Shown here: in pieces, positions 2,979-15,525 of the stretch
Layout of the letters: the number at the start of each line of letters is the position of its first letter
Numbering within the stretch: the stretch's first letter is position 1
IMG/VR virus record: IMGVR_UViG_2531839477_000015
Span: 1 to 18,808 of that record
Length of the DNA: 18,808 nt
Direction: 5' to 3' (one strand)
Source: a virus
Taxonomy: Duplodnaviria; Heunggongvirae; Uroviricota; Caudoviricetes
Notes under the pieces: model-generated
The model's database searches: none
Told to the model about the DNA's origin: nothing
The model's input: only the letters and a program-made list of their open reading frames with translations
Position numbers and translations under genes: made by a program

Positions 2979-3074
2979 ATCACTACCTCCAAAGCATGAG
3001 TGAGATGACAACGTAACATTGATTGGAGATTAACAATAGATTGCTGATGTAAAAGATATGTATAAGCTTCGCTT

Positions 3075-3707
3075 TCAAAGTGGAGGCTCTGGTAGCGGCA
3101 TCCAGTGTGACGGCTCACATACCCCCTCAACACCATTCATGTAAAAGAATTGAAATAACCCTTTACCTTTGTGAAACCCTACCATCTGCTCTTTTGTGTC
3201 TGAGCAATAAACCAAAACATCTTCTTCGCTTGGCATTCGCTCACTACAGCTTATCCAACCATCCGGAGTTACCGGAGAGTTGCCGGGTTCTTTAATGTGC
3301 AAGCGAGGCTCACCATCTTTTGGCTCAGGCCACTGGCGCTCCATGATAATCTTCAATTTATCTTCCATAGCAACGGTAATTTCAGCATCGCTGATGCCAG
3401 CACGGCGCTGTGCATCCCACAACAGAAACTGCATATCAGCCCACTCGCTAAGATCGTCTGGTTCGGCTGCGGCTTCCAGTGCCTCTTTTGAGAGATGTTT
3501 CAGCGGAACAATGGGGCCAACGCAGCCAAATGTGGAGTCAGACCATTTGGCATACTCGTGGCGAATCTGTTCGCGTTCCAGTGATGCCAGCGCAATTCGT
3601 GCCAGTTCTTCCGCTTCTTCTGCTGGCAGTACAACGTTGCTACCAGGTCCGTATGTTTCGCGCCACTGCTTGATTGTCAGTAGTCGCTCTTTGGTCATAG
3701 TGGTCAT
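3075..3707 (-). CDS. DUF551-like phage protein (hypothetical)
   Basis: Start trimmed to ATG 3705-3707 (MTTMTKERLL...) with AAGGAG upstream; C-terminus WISCSERMPSEEDVLVY...HWMPLPEPP resembles the DUF551 signature. Confidence 0.65.
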   Translation of the reverse strand: MTTMTKERLLTIKQWRETYGPGSNVVLPAEEAEELARIALASLEREQIRHEYAKWSDSTFGCVGPIVPLKHLSKEALEAAAEPDDLSEWADMQFLLWDAQRRAGISDAEITVAMEDKLKIIMERQWPEPKDGEPRLHIKEPGNSPVTPDGWISCSERMPSEEDVLVYCSDTKEQMVGFHKGKGLFQFFYMNGVEGVCEPSHWMPLPEPPL

Positions 3708-3708
3708 A

Positions 3709-4230
3709 TCACTCTCCTTTGATGCGAATGCCTGTTGCAATGCTGTTTATGATGCTGTCAGTGCATGGGGTAGAAAGCTGGGCATCTCCAGCAATTTTCA
3801 TGACCTCAACATCTGCATATCGAATACCGAGGTGTATCAGACCGGCTATGCCTGACTTAAGCCGAGCATTTTCCATAAATAGAACCTTTGCCCGCTGTTT
3901 TTCTGCTTCAAGCTCAACTCTCAGCTTCCCTACCGTTAGCGCAATCTCCTCGTTCTCCTGGTCGCGAGATTTGATGTATTGCTGGTTTCTTTCCCGTTCA
4001 TCCAGCAGCGCCTGCACTACTTCAGGGTTGAAAGCTGCGATATAACGAGCGTTGTTCTCTGCGTTGTTCTGTCCATCAAAGCCGGTCCATTTGATAACGT
4101 CTTCACATCGTTTATCACCAGGTGTATGCACCGCATATGTACCAGTACCAGACGAAATAAATGCGACCCATTCACCCTGTGTTGCCAGTTGCGCCGCCTC
4201 ACGCAGTGCCTGATAGTCAATCTTGCTCAC
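3709..4230 (-). CDS. Ead/Ea22-like protein
   Basis: GTG start at 4228-4230 with AAGGAGG 6 nt upstream; N-terminus SKIDYQALREAAQLATQGEW typical of Ead/Ea22-like prophage proteins; coiled-coil middle. Confidence 0.65.
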   Translation of the reverse strand: MSKIDYQALREAAQLATQGEWVAFISSGTGTYAVHTPGDKRCEDVIKWTGFDGQNNAENNARYIAAFNPEVVQALLDERERNQQYIKSRDQENEEIALTVGKLRVELEAEKQRAKVLFMENARLKSGIAGLIHLGIRYADVEVMKIAGDAQLSTPCTDSIINSIATGIRIKGE

Positions 4231-9143: not shown

Positions 9144-9449
9144 TCAATCGTAATAAGCTGGAATTGATTTTCCGCGTTGCTTCTGGCGGCCTGAACAAGT
9201 CACACCCATTTCACTGCGTGGCTTGCGGTAGTAAATACGGTTCTGTTTACGCTCGACTTCTTCTGCCTTCTTGCAGCGAAGGCTTCCGAGTGATGCTGCT
9301 TTATCTGCTCTGACGCAACCAGAGAGCTTTAGCGCAATTTTTCGTGCCAGTCGCTGCTCTTGCATTGCCTGTTCACGTTGATCCTGTCTGCGTGCTCTGC
9401 GGCGATTTCTGGCGTTATCGTCAGCCAGATATGTAATGACTACTGTCAT
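9144..9449 (-). CDS. N: Antitermination protein N
   Basis: N-terminal arginine-rich motif NARNRRRARRQDQREQ and C-terminus KPRSEMGVTCSGRQKQRGKSIP matching lambda N (...KPGERGITCSGRQKIKGKSIP); GGAGG 5 nt upstream; nutL lies in its leader. Confidence 0.85.
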   Translation of the reverse strand: MTVVITYLADDNARNRRRARRQDQREQAMQEQRLARKIALKLSGCVRADKAASLGSLRCKKAEEVERKQNRIYYRKPRSEMGVTCSGRQKQRGKSIPAYYD

Positions 9450-9557
9450 GTTGACCTCCGATGATTGACTTTGGCGGTGACGCGCCGGGTGCTTATCTTC
9501 CGGTTGCCGTCGTGCAGCTGCACTTCACGTCACCCCAAAACCAACTACTCTTTGGTT

Positions 9558-9598
9558 CCCGCATTTCGGCGGGACAATCCCATCAATGTTAAAGAGCC
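9558..9598 (-). promoter_or_regulatory. nutL (boxA GCTCTTTAACA + boxB hairpin CCCGC-CGAAAT-GCGGG)
   Basis: Read on the minus strand: boxA at plus 9587-9597 and boxB at plus 9558-9573; the boxB 16-mer is identical to the one downstream of cro. Confidence 0.7.
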
Positions 9599-9644
9599 TG
9601 CCAATATGTTCCGTTTGGCTACCAAACGTCCTGCTGATGGCTAA

Positions 9645-9673
9645 AGAATACTGTAGGTATTTTATTGTGTAAA
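9645..9673 (-). promoter_or_regulatory. pL promoter (putative)
   Basis: On the minus strand: -35 TTTACA (plus 9668-9673), 17-bp spacer, -10 TATTCT (plus 9645-9650); overlaps the two operator palindromes. Confidence 0.5.
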
Positions 9674-9731
9674 TACCCAAGGTATTTATTTTTGATGAAA
9701 TAATGATAAGCAAATGAATACAAAGGATATT
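9646..9731. promoter_or_regulatory. OL operators (2 clear + 1 degenerate site)
   Basis: AATAC-N5-GTATT at 9647-9661 and 9672-9686 (the latter a perfect 17-bp palindrome AAATACC-CAA-GGTATTT); weaker AATAC-N5-ATATT at 9717-9731. Confidence 0.6.
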
Positions 9732-9817
9732 TATTTTTTCGGTGTCTGCTTGTTCAGTGCTTTTTATGCGGGATATGTGAAGTGGATCCCGATAGCTATT
9801 GCTGCCGGGATTATAGG

Positions 9818-10186
9818 TTAGTCAGCGAAGGTTAAGACGAGAATTACCTTAATGATATCTGCTACAACAGACACGGCCATAGATAAACCAAAGACAATCC
9901 AAGCCATATAGATGTCTTCACTACCATCGTATAGAGTTCCGTAATCACTGGTGTAAGGCGTAAATGTCGCGCCTTGATACAACAGGTATAAGCTTGAACC
10001 ATAGAGGATAAATGCAGATATCCCTTGTATTGCTATGATCACTAGAATCATGAAACGAGCTGATCTATGCGCCCAAGCCTGGCTTATTTTTTCTGATAGA
10101 GATTTCGCAATAAAAGCATGCGCTAAGCCGTAAATTGTCGAGATTGCCAACATCCCAAAAAAGCTTGCTATAGCGGTTCCAACCAT
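9818..10186 (-). CDS. Small polytopic membrane protein in the rex position (downstream of cI)
   Basis: Start trimmed to ATG 10184-10186 (MVGTAIASFFGML...) with AAGGGG upstream (the track start is TTG); three or four hydrophobic helices; no recognised family. Confidence 0.65.
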   Translation of the reverse strand: MVGTAIASFFGMLAISTIYGLAHAFIAKSLSEKISQAWAHRSARFMILVIIAIQGISAFILYGSSLYLLYQGATFTPYTSDYGTLYDGSEDIYMAWIVFGLSMAVSVVADIIKVILVLTFAD

Positions 10187-10203: not shown

Positions 10204-10920
10204 TCAAACCAGCCTTAGTTTTGTCTCAATTGCAACGCCTATAATCTTGCAGTTTCCATTGATTGGCACGAGAGGCCATGCAGGATTAAGTCCCTTGAGG
10301 TATTTATTTCCGCCGTCGATTATCAGCTTCTTGAATGTTGCTTCGTTAGAGTCAGAAAGTTTTGCTATGACCAAGCTGCCGTTGATCGCCTCCCTTCCGG
10401 TATCGAAAAGAACGAATGTTCCCTCTGGAATGCTTAACCCAACCGGTGCCGTCATTGAATCACCTTCCACTTTAAGCCAGAACGCATTACCTTGAATATG
10501 CGCGTCAGACTCAAGCCAAACATCTATGTCTTTAATGGTGTATGGTTCGCATGCTTCACACCACGAGCCAGCCTGGATACTGCTTAACACCGGATACCTC
10601 TTTCCTGCTCTGTATTCCCCTGCATACCTTACGTTGGCATCGCTCTTAAGGCTTTCTGCCTGTTCTGCAACCTTGGCAGCAATTGACTGGCTAAAATCAG
10701 CAATTGAGACTTGCAACAGTCGTGCAAAACCAGATGCAACCTCAACGTTTAGCGCGTTTCTGCCATTAAGATAATGCCCTACCGCTCCTTGGGTGATACC
10801 CAGTTCATCCGCGATTGAGTATTGGGTTATCCCCAATTCTTTCTTTTTTGACTCATACAAAGCCTTAAGCCGCTTAGCGTCTTCGAGCTGTTCTGTCGTC
10901 AGTGATTTTTTATTTTCCAT
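10204..10920 (-). CDS. cI: CI-type prophage repressor (HTH + LexA/S24-like autocleavage domain)
   Basis: N-terminus LTTEQLEDAKRLKALYESKKKELGITQYSIADELGITQGAVGHY parallels lambda CI; C-terminal domain with conserved Ser/Lys context (WLKVEGDSMTAP ... TFKKLI); divergent from cro across the operators. Confidence 0.93.
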   Translation of the reverse strand: MENKKSLTTEQLEDAKRLKALYESKKKELGITQYSIADELGITQGAVGHYLNGRNALNVEVASGFARLLQVSIADFSQSIAAKVAEQAESLKSDANVRYAGEYRAGKRYPVLSSIQAGSWCEACEPYTIKDIDVWLESDAHIQGNAFWLKVEGDSMTAPVGLSIPEGTFVLFDTGREAINGSLVIAKLSDSNEATFKKLIIDGGNKYLKGLNPAWPLVPINGNCKIIGVAIETKLRLV

Positions 10921-10931
10921 AGCTTAATTCT

Positions 10932-10996
10932 AATAGCTAAGGTACTTAAACTAAAAATACCCTGAGTATTGATTGCTTTGAATACCTGTAGTATTC
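10932..10996. promoter_or_regulatory. OR operators (OR3-OR2-OR1) with divergent pRM and pR
   Basis: AATAC-N5-GTATT at 10956-10970 and 10981-10995, degenerate AATAG-N5-GTACT at 10932-10946; centre spacing 24-25 bp; possible leaderless pRM with -10 TAGAAT (plus 10927-10932) about 7 nt before the cI ATG. Confidence 0.6.
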
Positions 10997-10997
10997 T
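10969..10997 (+). promoter_or_regulatory. pR promoter (putative)
   Basis: -35 TTGATT (10969-10974), 17-bp spacer, -10 TATTCT (10992-10997), the same -10 hexamer as pL; overlaps OR1/OR2. Confidence 0.55.
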
Positions 10998-11026
10998 TTG
11001 TTCATGGTTAATAACGGAGAGTGCAT

Positions 11027-11221
11027 ATGATTCGAATGACACTTGCCGATTACGCCAAAATCCATGGACAGGCTAAAGCAGCCAGTGACTTTGGTGTAAT
11101 CCAGTGCGCTATCAGCAAGGCCATTCTGGCAGGCCGTAACATTATGGTTACGGTAAAGCCTGATGGCAGTGTGATTGGAGAGGAGGTTCGTCCTTTCCCA
11201 AGCAACAAGAAAAACAAATAG
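11027..11221 (+). CDS. cro: Cro repressor
   Basis: [33 protein letters not shown]...[13 protein letters not shown] parallels lambda Cro (…YQSAINKAI…EEVKPFPSNKK); ATG 11027 with ACGGAGAG upstream. Confidence 0.85.
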
Positions 11222-11227
11222 TAACAC

Positions 11228-11270
11228 CGCTCTTTAACAGTCATGGTCCTCATTCCCGCCGAAATGCGGG
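11228..11270 (+). promoter_or_regulatory. nutR (boxA CGCTCTTTAACA + boxB CCCGC-CGAAAT-GCGGG)
   Basis: boxA 11228-11239 matches the boxA consensus; boxB hairpin 11255-11270; located 7 nt after the cro stop. Confidence 0.75.
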
Positions 11271-11329
11271 AATACAACGCGCATCAGTTGGTGCGCATAA
11301 CTTCTTATTTGTTAAGGAAATACTTACAT

Positions 11330-11608
11330 ATGCAACTTACAAGTACTCGCAAGAAAGCGAATGCAATTACAAGCAACATCCTAAATCGAATTGCTGTACG
11401 TGGTCAGCGAAAGGTTGCTGATGCATTAGGGATCAATGAATCACAAATTTCGCGATGGAAAGACAGCTTTATCCCAAAGATGGCCATGCTTCTGGCTGTT
11501 CTTGAATGGGGAGTTGTTGATGATGAGATGGCGAGACTTGCTCAGCAGGTGGCATCGATTCTCACAAAAGAAAAACGCCCAGCTGTTGGTAGCAGTCTGG
11601 ACGCTTAA
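11330..11608 (+). CDS. cII: CII transcriptional activator
   Basis: Start trimmed to ATG 11330 (upstream AAGGAAATACTTACATATG matches the lambda cII initiation region as recalled); ...SQISRWKDSFIPKMAMLLAVLEWGVVDDEMARLAQQVASILT parallels lambda CII. Confidence 0.9.
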   Translation: MQLTSTRKKANAITSNILNRIAVRGQRKVADALGINESQISRWKDSFIPKMAMLLAVLEWGVVDDEMARLAQQVASILTKEKRPAVGSSLDA

Positions 11609-11668
11609 GCACACTGTGTTACGCCAAGTAACAGGAGTAATTATGCCAGGACAAACCAAGCAAGTAAA
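11567..11668 (-). ncRNA. OOP-like antisense RNA (putative)
   Basis: Minus-strand hairpin CGUCCAG...CUGGGCG + UUUUUCUUUU inside the cII 3' end (plus about 11570-11600), analogous to the lambda oop terminator; possible promoter -35 TTGTCA (plus 11687-11692) and -10 TTTACT (plus 11663-11668). Confidence 0.3.
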
Positions 11669-12047
11669 CACCGGCATAAAGGCCGGTGACAAGTTCGAAA
11701 CCGTATATCCATTTATCTTCGTATGCACAGATTATCAGTCTTATGACGGCAACGTGCATACCGATGAGCGCTGGATTGGCGGTTGTCACAAAAATTATGA
11801 GCCAGCCGATTGTGGTTATGGTGATCAGTGTTTTTACACCGCTGATGCTGAAGGAAAGAGAATTCTTGAGGTTCTGGCAGTGGTGGAAATGCCAGGCAAC
11901 TGGCAGCGCAGAATCATTTATTCGTGCCACCTCATAGAGCCTGAAGGCAAGGAGAGGAAAGGAAGGAAGGCTTACACAGTCACCGAATCAAGGTTTTTAA
12001 AAATGTCTACTGGTTACTTCGCTGATTACGAAGTAGAGGAGGCTTAA
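11643..12047 (+). CDS. Hypothetical Cys-rich protein (134 aa) inserted between cII and O
   Basis: ATG 11643 with AGGAG 5 nt upstream (the track ORF is over-extended into cII); Cys/His-rich segment [40 protein letters not shown]; no family recognised. Confidence 0.6.
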
Positions 12048-12193
12048 TGACAAAACCACTCAGTCCTTACCAGGACAAAATTCACAAACACATACTACGT
12101 GATCGCTTCCTGTCCAGCTTCAAGCAGCCTGGTCGATTCCGGGCTGAGTTGGAAAAAGTGAAGCTGATGCAGAAGGAGAAAGGTCATGAGTAA
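12047..12193 (+). CDS. Small ORF (48 aa), translationally coupled
   Basis: Not in the track. ATG 12047 overlaps the upstream stop (TAATG) with GAGGAGG 5 nt upstream; translation [48 protein letters not shown]; 3' end overlaps the O-like start. Confidence 0.4.
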
Positions 12194-13046
12194 TCTTGCA
12201 ACCGTAACACATTTAAGGCCTTCACAACGGCCTGTGGAGCGTCGTGTGGCAGAAGTTGAAGATGGTTATACCCGTCTTGCAAATGCCCTGTATGAAGAGC
12301 TTATCGGCGCAGATTTAACGAAAAATCAGAGCAAGGTTGCCCACGCCATATGCCGTAAAACATACGGCTACGGTAAAAAGATGGATCGCATCTCTGATAG
12401 TCAGTTAGCTCAAATTACCAGGCTGCCAAGACAGAAGGTAAACAAGGCCAAGAATGAGCTTATCGCGATGAAGGTTATCCTTCGCGAAGGCCAGCAAATC
12501 GGGCCTAACAAGAACATCGAGGAATGGCAAATAGAAGGGTGTCACTACTCTGGTGATAATGTCACTGCATTGGTGACAAAAAGTGTCACCAAAACGGTGA
12601 CAGCGCTGTCACCAAAACAGGGACACACAAAAGAAACTATTACAAAAGAAAAAAGAAATAATAAAAACACTATGTCCGAAAGTGTTCGGACGGAGTGTGA
12701 AAAATCACATGACCGTCACGAAGAAACCGACAAGGCATTCGAGGAAATATTCTGGTGTGCAGGCATGCGGAAAGCCGGGAAGAAAAACGCAGCTTCGGCA
12801 TTCAGAACACAGTTCAGGGAATGGCGTAAAACTACCAGGGGTACGGCAAGCGAGTTTGCCACGATGCTGGCAGAAGACATCGCATGCAGGAATGGTAAGC
12901 AGTTCGGATTCGACAGGTTGTTACCATCGAGCTACCTGAACGGTCAACGCTGGAACGACGAGAAGCCAGAAACTATTCAACCACAATCCAAACCATCATC
13001 CGCAATCACCGTATCGAAAACTGGCTACGTGTTTTTCGACAGGTGA
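12186..13046 (+). CDS. Replication initiator, lambda O-like N-terminal domain with unrelated C-terminal domain
   Basis: N-terminal region [58 protein letters not shown]...GPNKNIEEW parallels lambda O; iterons inside the gene; C-terminal half not O-like. Confidence 0.85.
12551..12672. repeat. Putative ori: iteron cluster plus AT-rich tract inside the O-like gene
   Basis: Six alternating copies of GGTGACA/TGTCACC-type heptamers between 12551 and 12622 (tggtgataa, tgtcactgc, ttggtgacaaaaa, gtgtcaccaaaac, ggtgacagcgc, tgtcaccaaaac), followed by the A-rich tract 12628-12672. Confidence 0.6.
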
Positions 13047-13153: not shown

Positions 13154-13648
13154 ATGATGAGCCTTGAAGTTGGAGAATATATACCTGGTTATGAGGGTAA
13201 ATACTCTGTAACCAAAGACGGTCGTGTTTATTCACATTTAAGAGGCAGGTTTTTGAATCCATCTCCGGATAACAAGGGTTATCTAAGAGTCACTTTGTGT
13301 TCCGATGGGATTCAGAAGACGTTAAAAGTTCATCGTCTTGTAGCTCAATTATTTATCCCAAATCCGTATTGCAAGCCAGAAGTAAATCATATCAACGGCG
13401 ACAAATCGGATAACGCCATTTGGAACTTGGAATGGTGTACCTGCTCAGAGAATTTAAAACATGCTTTTAGCATCGGACTGAAAAGCGCAAAGGGAGTTTT
13501 TAATGGTAGGGCAAAACTATCTGAAACTGATGTGATTGATATCAGGAATTCTGTTGGTATGAAACTAAGCGAACTATCCACTAAATACGGAGTGAGTGAA
13601 ATGCAAATTTCCACAATCCGCAGAGGAAACGCATGGAGGCACCTTTGA
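13154..13648 (+). CDS. HNH homing-type endonuclease (NUMOD4-like N-terminus, HNH_3 core, C-terminal HTH)
   Basis: YIPGYEGKYSVTKDGRVYS...HRLVAQLFIPNP...VNHINGDKSDNAIWNLEWCTCSEN; by-eye AT-rich; sits between the O-like gene and the primase-helicase. Confidence 0.8.
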   Translation: MMSLEVGEYIPGYEGKYSVTKDGRVYSHLRGRFLNPSPDNKGYLRVTLCSDGIQKTLKVHRLVAQLFIPNPYCKPEVNHINGDKSDNAIWNLEWCTCSENLKHAFSIGLKSAKGVFNGRAKLSETDVIDIRNSVGMKLSELSTKYGVSEMQISTIRRGNAWRHL

Positions 13649-15525
13649 GTCCATCAGAACTTAGCGACCTGCTTTGGGCGCAGGTTGACAGGGTGGCTCC
13701 GCACCTGTTGCCAAACGGCAAGAAAGAGGGGCATGAGTGGGTTGCCGGTAACGTCAACGGTGACAAGGGAAACAGCCTTAAGGTCAACCTTAGCGGCAAG
13801 AAAAAATGGGCTGATTTCGCCGAGGGAGACGGCGGTGACATGCTTGATTTGTGGATGGCATGTCGTGGAATTAACCTGCATCAGGCTATGCAGGAAGCGA
13901 AAGCATTTCTCGGTATCAAGGATGACGATCACCATTTCGATGCCAAACGTGAGAAGAAATTCTCCAGACCTGATCGCAAGAAAATCGCCCGCTACGTTAC
14001 CAGGACAGAATCCCATCTTGAGTACCTGCAATCGCGTGGCATATCGCCAGAAGTCGTAAAGCGCTACGAGGTTGTCAGCGGCAAGGTGTGGAATGGAGAA
14101 CGAGAACTGGATGCTCTGGTGATTCCGTACAAACGCGATGGTGAGTTGTTGCAGGTCAAGCGAATCAGCACTGAGCGCTCGGACGGGAAGAAAGTCATTA
14201 TGGCAGAAGGTGATTGCGAACCTTGTCTGTTCGGATGGCAGGCTCTGGACGCTGGCGTGAGGGCGGTTGTACTTTGCGAAGGCGAAATTGATTGTATGAG
14301 CTATGCGCAATACGGCATCTCGGCGTTATCCGTGCCGTTTGGTGGCGGGAAAGGCGCTAAGCAACAGTGGATTGAGTTTGAGTATCACAACCTCGACAGG
14401 TTTGAGGAAATATTCATCTCGATGGACGTTGATGATGTTGGTCGTGAAGCCGCAAGGGAAATCGCAAGCCGACTCGGTGAACATCGTTGCCGTCTTGTTA
14501 CTCTGCCGTACAAGGACATCAACGAATGCCTGATGAACGGTGTTACCGAGGATGAAATCTGGCAGTACATCGGCACGGCATCCTACTTCGATCCTGAAGA
14601 ACTCTACAGCGCGCGAGAGTTTTACCAGGACACTATCAACGCTTTCTACGGCAAGCAGCAGTATCTGTTTAATCCACCGTGGGAATCTCTGGCAGATAAA
14701 TTCCAGTTCCGTGAGGCCGAGTTGACGCTGGTCAATGGTGTGAACGGTCACGGAAAAACGGAGGTTGTCGGGCATATGGCACTTGAGGCAATGCGTCAGG
14801 GGGTGAAGACGTGCATCGCGTCACTTGAGCTGAAGCCTGGTATTCTCCTTAAGCGCCTTACCCGTCAGGCAACGTGCTGCAAGATGCCGCCAGTGCTGGA
14901 AATTGACTCTGCATTTAAATTTTATGACGAAAGACTTTGGGTGTTTGGCCTGACCGGAACGGCGAAATCCGACAGGCTGATCGAAATATTCGACTACGCT
15001 CGCCGCCGATACGGGATCCAGTTATTCATCATCGACAGCCTGATGAAATGTGGCATAGGCGACGATGACTATAACGGGCAGAAGGCGTTTGTTGACTCGA
15101 TTTGCGACTTCAAAAACAAAACAAACTCCCACGTCATTCTCGTTACTCACTCGCGAAAAGGAGACAGCGAAGAAAAACCAACCGGGAAAATGGACGTAAA
15201 AGGCTCTGGAGCGATAACAGACCTGACAGACAACCTTTTCATCATCTGGCGTAACAAGGCTCGCGAGAGAGCGTTACAGAGAGTTCAGAGTGGTGAAAAG
15301 ATGTCAGAGAAGGACGAACAGCTACTGGCATCTCCGGCATCTGTTTTGATGCTTGAAAAACAACGTAACGGCGAAGGTTGGGAAGGTGGCGTCCCGTTGT
15401 TCCTTGACGAGCAATCGCACCAGTTCCTGCAACTTGAATCAGGATCGCCATATAGCTACATCGCCAATATGCCGAAATCGGAATATGACGAGGCGTGGCG
15501 ACAGGAAAACGTGACGGAGTATTAA
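13633..15525 (+). CDS. Bifunctional primase-helicase (Toprim primase + DnaB/SF4-like helicase)
   Basis: 630 aa; Toprim-like VVLCEGEIDCMS; Walker A LVNGVNGHGKTEV; Walker B-like LFIIDSLMK; occupies the lambda P position. Confidence 0.85.
   Translation: MEAPLSPSELSDLLWAQVDRVAPHLLPNGKKEGHEWVAGNVNGDKGNSLKVNLSGKKKWADFAEGDGGDMLDLWMACRGINLHQAMQEAKAFLGIKDDDHHFDAKREKKFSRPDRKKIARYVTRTESHLEYLQSRGISPEVVKRYEVVSGKVWNGERELDALVIPYKRDGELLQVKRISTERSDGKKVIMAEGDCEPCLFGWQALDAGVRAVVLCEGEIDCMSYAQYGISALSVPFGGGKGAKQQWIEFEYHNLDRFEEIFISMDVDDVGREAAREIASRLGEHRCRLVTLPYKDINECLMNGVTEDEIWQYIGTASYFDPEELYSAREFYQDTINAFYGKQQYLFNPPWESLADKFQFREAELTLVNGVNGHGKTEVVGHMALEAMRQGVKTCIASLELKPGILLKRLTRQATCCKMPPVLEIDSAFKFYDERLWVFGLTGTAKSDRLIEIFDYARRRYGIQLFIIDSLMKCGIGDDDYNGQKAFVDSICDFKNKTNSHVILVTHSRKGDSEEKPTGKMDVKGSGAITDLTDNLFIIWRNKARERALQRVQSGEKMSEKDEQLLASPASVLMLEKQRNGEGWEGGVPLFLDEQSHQFLQLESGSPYSYIANMPKSEYDEAWRQENVTEY

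Follow-up and report, generated by a model that had tools for sequence, protein, structure and literature searches.

The DNA analyzed here (the window, a stretch of 18,808 nucleotides) carries a mosaic early region with genes for an integrase, an Erf-like recombinase, SSB, N, CI, Cro, CII, an O-like initiator, an HNH endonuclease, and a primase/helicase. Within it, cI and cro are divergently oriented across a gap of 106 bp and code for a repressor with HTH and S24 domains and for a small Cro protein, respectively (Table 1). The first-pass annotation of this DNA had described an immunity region with an operator specificity of its own. The divergent CI and Cro genes, the operator clusters OR and OL, and a half-site that is unlike that of lambda at position 4 all agree with that description.

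CI is 43% identical to lambda CI, and its closest solved structures are those of the lambda repressor, 3BDN (the best match) and 1LMB. Cro is 63% identical to lambda Cro, with 5CRO and 6CRO as the top matches among solved structures, and the closest structures for the two proteins include complexes of lambda repressor and lambda Cro with DNA. Judged by sequence and structure matches, CI and Cro are orthologs of the lambda proteins. The motifs QAG, SMTAP, and FKKL of CI align with the cleavage site and the catalytic residues of lambda CI, and we take their counterparts there to be Ala111-Gly112, Ser149, and Lys192. As CI thus has an Ala-Gly cleavage site and both residues of the Ser/Lys dyad, its RecA-stimulated self-cleavage is predicted to induce the prophage.

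Table 1. Genes, operators, and promoters of the immunity region, in window coordinates
Feature	Position	Strand	Description
cI (repressor)	10204..10920	-	238 aa; HTH_3 and Peptidase_S24
cro	11027..11221	+	64 aa; Pfam Cro PF09048, E = 3.6e-26
cII			Flanking ORF; PF05269 (Phage_CII)
hkaS-like gene	9818..10186	-	Small membrane protein of 122 aa; hkaS in HK620 annotation; phrog_6534, function unknown
N (antiterminator)	9144..9449	-	First gene of pL operon; HK620 annotation; weak N_peptide Pfam match
nutL	9557-9598		Exact identity to HK620 nutL
nutR	11228..11273	+	boxA CGCTCTTTAAC and boxB hairpin, downstream of cro; exact identity to HK620 nutR
OR1	10980..10996	.	GAATACCTGTAGTATTC; perfect core; same as HK620 OR1
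OR2	10955..10971	.	AAATACCCTGAGTATTG; perfect core; same as HK620 OR2
OR3	10931..10947	.	TAATAGCTAAGGTACTT; degenerate, 2 core mismatches; same as HK620 OR3
OL1	9646..9662	.	GAATACTGTAGGTATTT; perfect core; same as HK620 OL1
OL2	9671..9687	.	AAATACCCAAGGTATTT; perfect core, 7-bp perfect arms; same as HK620 OL2
Probable OL3	9716..9732	.	GAATACAAAGGATATTT; one core mismatch; 45 bp from OL2 center
pR	10969..10997	+	-35 TTGATT (10969-10974), 17-bp spacer, -10 TATTCT (10992-10997)
pL	9645..9673	-	-35 TTTACA (9673..9668), 17-bp spacer, -10 TATTCT (9650..9645); found by promoter scan
pRM -10	10927..10932	-	TAGAAT, 6 nt upstream of cI ATG (10920)

The hkaS-like gene occupies the slot between cI and OL that holds rexAB in lambda, so that a single gene for a small membrane protein stands here in place of that pair. 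It is probably cotranscribed with cI and expressed in lysogens from pRM, and a function in exclusion or in lysogenic conversion is possible. Just past its stop codon there is a GC-rich hairpin, UCCCGGCAGCAAUAGCUAUCGGGA (9786-9811, minus strand); the 136-nt segment that contains it folds at -20.2 kcal/mol (z = -1.96). We considered this hairpin as a terminator and rejected it, as it is stable but without a U-tract.

Two observations concern the genes downstream of cro. An ORF at 11436-12047 (plus strand) overlaps the end of cII, and its residues 70 to 203 match phrog_30464, a family of unknown function; its true start is probably internal, near 11643. Further on, the ORF for the HNH endonuclease (13154-13648, plus strand) is inserted between those for the O-like initiator (12186-13046) and the primase/helicase (13633-15525).

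Relationship to coliphage HK620

The segment 9258-11580 of the window is about 97.6% identical to coliphage HK620, whose record (AF335538.1/NC_002730) annotates OL1-3, OR1-3, pL, pR, nutL, nutR, tIMM, and pRE; we mapped these features to the window by an offset of +7758. OR1-3, OL1-2, pR, pL, nutL, and nutR are base-for-base identical in the two phages, and the genes between and beside them are nearly so, with differences at 5 of 717 nucleotides in cI and at 2 of 195 in cro. Near-identical cI and cro genes together with exact copies of five operators place the region in the HK620 immunity type. The flanks are mosaic, and the 3' parts of N and cII diverge from HK620. The junctions lie inside these two genes, at 9144-9260 in N and at 11500-11608 in cII (66 and 43 mismatches to HK620, respectively), and the remainder of both genes is nearly identical to HK620. 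A single phage record accounts for 32% of the window at most.

The same immunity module is found in HK630, HK140, mEpX2, HF4s, and some Stx2c phages. With an identity threshold of 95%, it is present in 146 of 5,426 complete E. coli genomes (about 2.7%), and a scan of viral contigs returned 362 relatives of the DNA-binding domain of the repressor, of which the best 80 are 100% identical to it. Immunity of the phage 21 type was considered as well; phage 21 has no record among the 18 full-length phage matches, in a collection that may not include it.

The operators described here are hence already known as those of the HK620-type immunity region, annotated by sequence in 2001 according to the GenBank feature table, and the first-pass annotation amounts to their rediscovery from the sequence alone. 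The original HK620 paper is that of Clark and coworkers from 2001 (J Mol Biol 311:657). The comparison with known lambdoid immunity operators that had been proposed as a check gave an exact match to OR1-3 and OL1-2 of HK620. We found no binding, footprinting, or transcript-mapping data for HK620-type CI or Cro in the searchable literature, and our literature searches for experimental work on the operators of HK620, HK630, mEpX2, or imm21 returned nothing relevant. What is new here is the breadth of the operator family and a probable misannotation of OL3 in the HK620 record.

Operators and promoters

The operators share the core motif AATACNNNNNGTATT (AATAC-N5-GTATT), which has four perfect matches in the 18.8 kb of the window (9647-9661, 9672-9686, 10956-10970, and 10981-10995). 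Dinucleotide-preserving shuffles led us to expect 0.01, and none of 200 shuffles of the window gave four. A scan of the whole window placed the perfect motif exclusively in the cI-cro intergenic region and in the intergenic region upstream of N. Allowing up to one mismatch gave five matches (0.47 expected), with 9717-9731 as the sole addition. Allowing up to two gave 15 matches in the window where 7.8 were expected, an excess so small that the core motif by itself gives no significance to OR3 (core at 10932-10946). We scored 18,792 positions of the window with a weight matrix trained only on the four perfect operators. OL2 had the top score, the site at 9716-9732 ranked sixth, and OR3 ranked seventh; shuffles that preserve local composition equaled the score of 9716-9732 in 70 of 20,000 cases and that of OR3 in 53 of 20,000. 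The operator-like 17-mer at rank 5 (AAAGACTTTGGGTGTTT, 14930-14946) is probably a chance match and was treated as such: it lies within the primase/helicase coding sequence and has mismatches at two invariant core positions.

All six sites that the first-pass annotation had listed are present, and its spacing of 24 to 25 bp holds, with centers 24 bp apart for OR3 and OR2 and 25 bp apart both for OR2 and OR1 and for OL1 and OL2. The distance from OL2 to the third OL site is 45 bp. The claim that OL2 is a perfect 17-bp palindrome does not hold, since only its 7-bp arms are perfect and positions 8 and 10 are asymmetric. In the 17-bp register the half-site reads (A/G)AATAC(C/T): position 1 is A or G, A stands at position 2 in 10/10 half-sites and at position 3 in 9/10, T at position 4 and A at position 5 in 10/10 each, C at position 6 in 9/10, and position 7 is C or T. 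Among 80 near-identical loci, few operator columns vary, and those that do are mostly central positions.

The three dyad-symmetric operators of OR (10931-10996) overlap both hexamers of pR and the -10 hexamer of pRM. OR1 overlaps the -10 hexamer of pR, and the final 3 bp of OR2 are the TTG of its -35 hexamer. At its other end OR2 abuts the -35 region of pRM, where the candidate hexamer TTTAGT (10955..10950) is weak (3 of 6 positions) and touches the operator. On the left, OL1 and OL2 (9646-9687) have the same half-site and lie over pL, with its -10 hexamer under OL1, its -35 hexamer under OL2, and nutL and N downstream. A common -10 hexamer, TATTCT, for pR and pL and the overlap of these promoters with the promoter-proximal operators had been noted earlier, and both were recovered here, together with 17-bp spacers. 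The predicted starts are near 11004 for pR and near 9638 for pL; the HK620 annotations of these promoters map to 10969-11004 and 9638-9673.

A generic promoter scan of the window found pL and neither pR nor pRM, because the latter two each match 8 of 12 consensus positions or fewer. The calls for pR and pRM rest instead on position, on the annotation of HK620, and on conservation. The TTG and the TATTCT/TATTAT hexamers of pR are kept in phages of Hafnia, Serratia, and Erwinia.

The arrangement follows that of lambda closely. Both phages have 17-bp operators with a central base pair and three similarly spaced OR sites, and in both pR and pL are each overlapped by operators 1 and 2. The centers of OR3, OR2, and OR1 lie 19, 43, and 68 bp from the cI ATG here and 19, 42, and 66 bp from it in lambda, so that the spacings within OR are 24 and 25 bp instead of 23 and 24 bp. 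In both phages OR3 and the -10 hexamer of pRM share 2 bp at the end of the operator, and 6 nt separate the hexamer (TAGAAT here and TAGATT in lambda) from the ATG. The hexamer had been proposed before at this place ahead of cI, and it has not only the lambda geometry but is also kept in diverged relatives. No Shine-Dalgarno sequence precedes the cI ATG, and together with the placement of the -10 hexamer this makes a leaderless cI mRNA the natural reading. That such an mRNA is made as in lambda had likewise been predicted, and the identical geometry of OR3, the pRM -10 hexamer, and the ATG supports it. In most of 32 diverged loci a TAnAAT/TAnTAT hexamer is fused to the end of OR3, 5 to 7 nt before the ATG, which points to the leaderless pRM arrangement as a trait of the family.

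Conservation and specificity of the half-site

To find the diverged loci, genomes were scanned with an alignment of repressor DNA-binding domains; this gave 33 prophage loci at 60 to 84% identity, 32 of them distinct and used here. Their genera include Serratia, Yersinia, Pectobacterium, Pantoea, Tatumella, Proteus, Morganella, Providencia, and Photorhabdus, and the CI helix QGAVGHYLNGRN is kept in nearly all of them. Sites of at least 9 bits occur in the 32 loci at 17.5 per kb within 130 bp upstream of cI and at 0.50 per kb elsewhere. Their centers recur at three distances from the cI ATG: 18 to 20 bp in 17/32 loci, 40 to 44 bp in 26/32, and 64 to 69 bp in 28/32. The Hafnia phage Pocitis76, the Serratia phage OS31, and the Erwinia phage Ehr49, whose DNA is about 70 to 73% identical to that of the window across OR, cro, and the N-terminal part of cI, each carry three motif sites at OR and another three at OL.

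Some relatives depart from this pattern. A subgroup of five loci (L018, L023, L032, L033, and L035) has the same CI helix and no motif match at the positions of OR2 and OR3, where another conserved sequence, GGTAGGAGAC...TCAAAC, is found. In the record of phage OS31 (L005), cI (3020-3778) apparently starts some 16 codons too early; as deposited, its coding sequence covers the predicted OR3 and OR2, and a lambda-like start, MESKKSL, lies downstream.

How does the half-site compare with that of lambda? The consensus here is AAATACC and that of lambda is TATCACCG, which reads T-A-(T)-C-A-C-C-G. The two share A at position 2, A at position 5, C at position 6, and C or T at position 7 and differ at positions 1, 3, 4, and 8, in keeping with the earlier remark that they are not the same. 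From this comparison of sequences, the half-site is a variant of that of lambda and not an unrelated sequence. The clearest difference is at position 4, with T in 10/10 half-sites here and C in 12/12 half-sites of lambda. The region also has neither a C at this position nor the helix 3 of lambda CI, QSGVGALFNGIN, and thus lacks the marks of the lambda immunity specificity.

The DNA-binding helices differ in a corresponding way. Helix 3 of CI is QGAVGHYLNGRN in place of QSGVGALFNGIN; in the alignment with lambda CI, the repressor retains Gln44, Asn52, and Asn55 and has Gly in place of Ser45 and His in place of Ala49. Base pair 4, the one that has changed here, is contacted by Ser45 at its guanine in the lambda complex (1LMB). 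The recognition helix of Cro is QCAISK here and QSAINK in lambda, with Ser replaced by Cys at H2 and Asn by Ser at H5. Going by these alignments, the change from C to T at position 4 matches the Ser45-to-Gly replacement in CI and the H2 and H5 replacements in Cro. A simple covariation between residue 55 of CI and operator position 6 was considered as well and rejected: three loci (L010, L012, and L013) have Ile55 in place of Asn55, yet C6 is kept.

An evolutionary code for Cro pairs Gln at H1 with A at position 2, Ala at H3 with A at position 5, and Lys at H6 with C at position 6 (Hall, Lefevre and Cordes 2005 and Hall et al. 2011, summarized in PMC6649833). The helix QCAISK, with Gln at H1, Ala at H3, and Lys at H6, and a half-site with A2, A5, and C6 are what this code predicts, an agreement that may not be fully independent because HK620 is possibly in the dataset of the code.

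These comparisons also bear on the question of whether the palindromes are operators of CI and Cro at all. Chance AT-rich repeats, or targets of another factor, might be expected in intergenic regions that are 64 to 74% A+T, as both of these are. However, chance would hardly produce four perfect sites against an expectation of 0.01, and neither it nor another factor fits a placement relative to the cI ATG that is conserved across genera, the agreement with the recognition code of Cro, and a geometry that can be superimposed on the experimentally defined operators of lambda. We give this explanation next to no credence and regard it as effectively refuted.

The probable third left operator

Our analysis and the HK620 record differ in the placement of OL3. 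We place it at 9716-9732, whereas the HK620 record puts it at the equivalent of 9693-9709 (TGATGAAATAATGATAA), 22 bp from OL2. The placement in the record has in its favor, besides the annotation itself, a spacing like the 20 to 22 bp of lambda and the existence of a genuine motif site at 21 bp in some relatives. In the window, however, the stretch scores -14.7 bits with the weight matrix and ranks 8,457 of 18,792, which is background. It is also commonly polymorphic in close relatives, with position 9695 variable in 42/79 loci. In addition, sites at 21 bp and sites at 45 bp exclude each other: there are relatives with a real 21-bp site and no 45-bp site and relatives with the reverse, and the window belongs to the 45-bp class. 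It is thus very improbable that 9693-9709 is the true OL3.

The site at 9716-9732 differs from the annotated one on each of these counts. Nine of 23 OL clusters, from several genera, have a site at this 45-bp offset from OL2; they include those of Serratia phage OS31 and of prophages from Pantoea, Tatumella, Yersinia, Kluyvera, and Phytobacter. These sites score 11 to 17 bits, and their half-sites are kept while the center varies freely. Other relatives have their third site at 21 bp or at 29 to 30 bp, and the positions are essentially mutually exclusive. The first-pass annotation had called the third OL site degenerate, and matrix rank, conservation, and the recurrent 45-bp offset now support it better than the OL3 of the HK620 record. 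On this sequence evidence the HK620 annotation of OL3 appears to be wrong and 9716-9732 to be the better OL3.

A site of this kind need not be an operator. The stretch could be part of a terminator, tIMM, or of a conserved AT-rich boundary or upstream element, and OL would then consist of two operators, as has been reported for phage 933W. The HK620 record indeed labels the equivalent of 9706-9736 as tIMM, which covers 9716-9732. This segment, however, folds at only -0.6 kcal/mol (z = +0.56), no better than shuffled sequence, and so contains no credible intrinsic terminator; we reject tIMM as a stable terminator hairpin on these grounds. Next to the site, at 9733-9741 on the cI strand, is the conserved element AAAATAAAT, which nearly all relatives (seen in L007 to L037) carry at a constant distance from OL toward cI; lambda (L003) has it too, immediately past OL3. 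The element may serve pL as an upstream or host-factor element or mark a recombination boundary. It is kept even in relatives whose adjoining stretch does not match the operator, so part of the conservation of 9716-9732 could have another cause. The spacing of 45 bp, moreover, is a nonintegral number of helical turns.

Against a nonoperator role stand the rank of the site, sixth of 18,792 positions; its near invariance, with a single variant in some 1,340 alignment cells of 79 close relatives, compared with 3.3% in the neighboring gap (9688-9715); and the recurrence of 11- to 17-bit sites at exactly 45 bp in nine OL clusters of different genera. We therefore consider a nonoperator role unlikely, though to be taken seriously, and favor with some confidence the reading of 9716-9732 as a true CI site.

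The distance of 45 bp between OL2 and OL3 contrasts with 20 bp in lambda. A tentative generalization, which we put forward as a possibility and somewhat doubt, is that the HK620-type family has a left-operator architecture unlike that of lambda, with OL3 at 21, 29 to 30, or 45 bp, with the window and HK620 both in the 45-bp class, and with the OL3 of HK620 misplaced in its record.

The proposed switch

We consider it very probable that the window carries an HK620-type immunity region that works as a lambda-style bistable switch, with the functional steps proposed by analogy with lambda. A LexA-like CI and a Cro of the lambda fold would act on common 17-bp dyad-symmetric operators with the half-site (A/G)AATAC(C/T). 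In the lysogen, CI dimers at OR1 and OR2 would occlude pR, and dimers at OL1 and OL2 would occlude pL. CI at OR2 adjoins the weak -35 hexamer of pRM and probably activates this promoter; the poor match of that hexamer and a distance of OR2 that is 1 bp greater than in lambda make the activation an assumption. Transcription from pRM would start with the A of the cI ATG or with a neighboring nucleotide and give a leaderless cI-hkaS mRNA. The weak OR3, which lies over the -10 hexamer of pRM, would shut off the synthesis of CI when CI is abundant or when Cro binds. OR3 may also limit cI expression together with OL3 through a loop of 1.3 kb, the distance between OL and OR being about 1.3 kb here and about 2.4 kb in lambda. 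Cro, bound to the same sites, would shut off pRM, and self-cleavage of CI stimulated by RecA would lead to prophage induction.

For E. coli phages, this is a common immunity module, and the importance of the present findings lies mostly in its correct annotation. Beyond E. coli, the operator specificity and the leaderless-cI arrangement of pRM are conserved across prophages of many Enterobacterales genera. As the operators differ from those of lambda mainly at one invariant base pair, the family offers a convenient natural case for studying how the specificities of CI and Cro diverge. If the left-operator architecture is indeed as outlined above and the 45-bp OL3 is functional, the relatives would form a natural series for relating operator spacing to the cooperativity of CI and to the control of pRM by looping between OL and OR.
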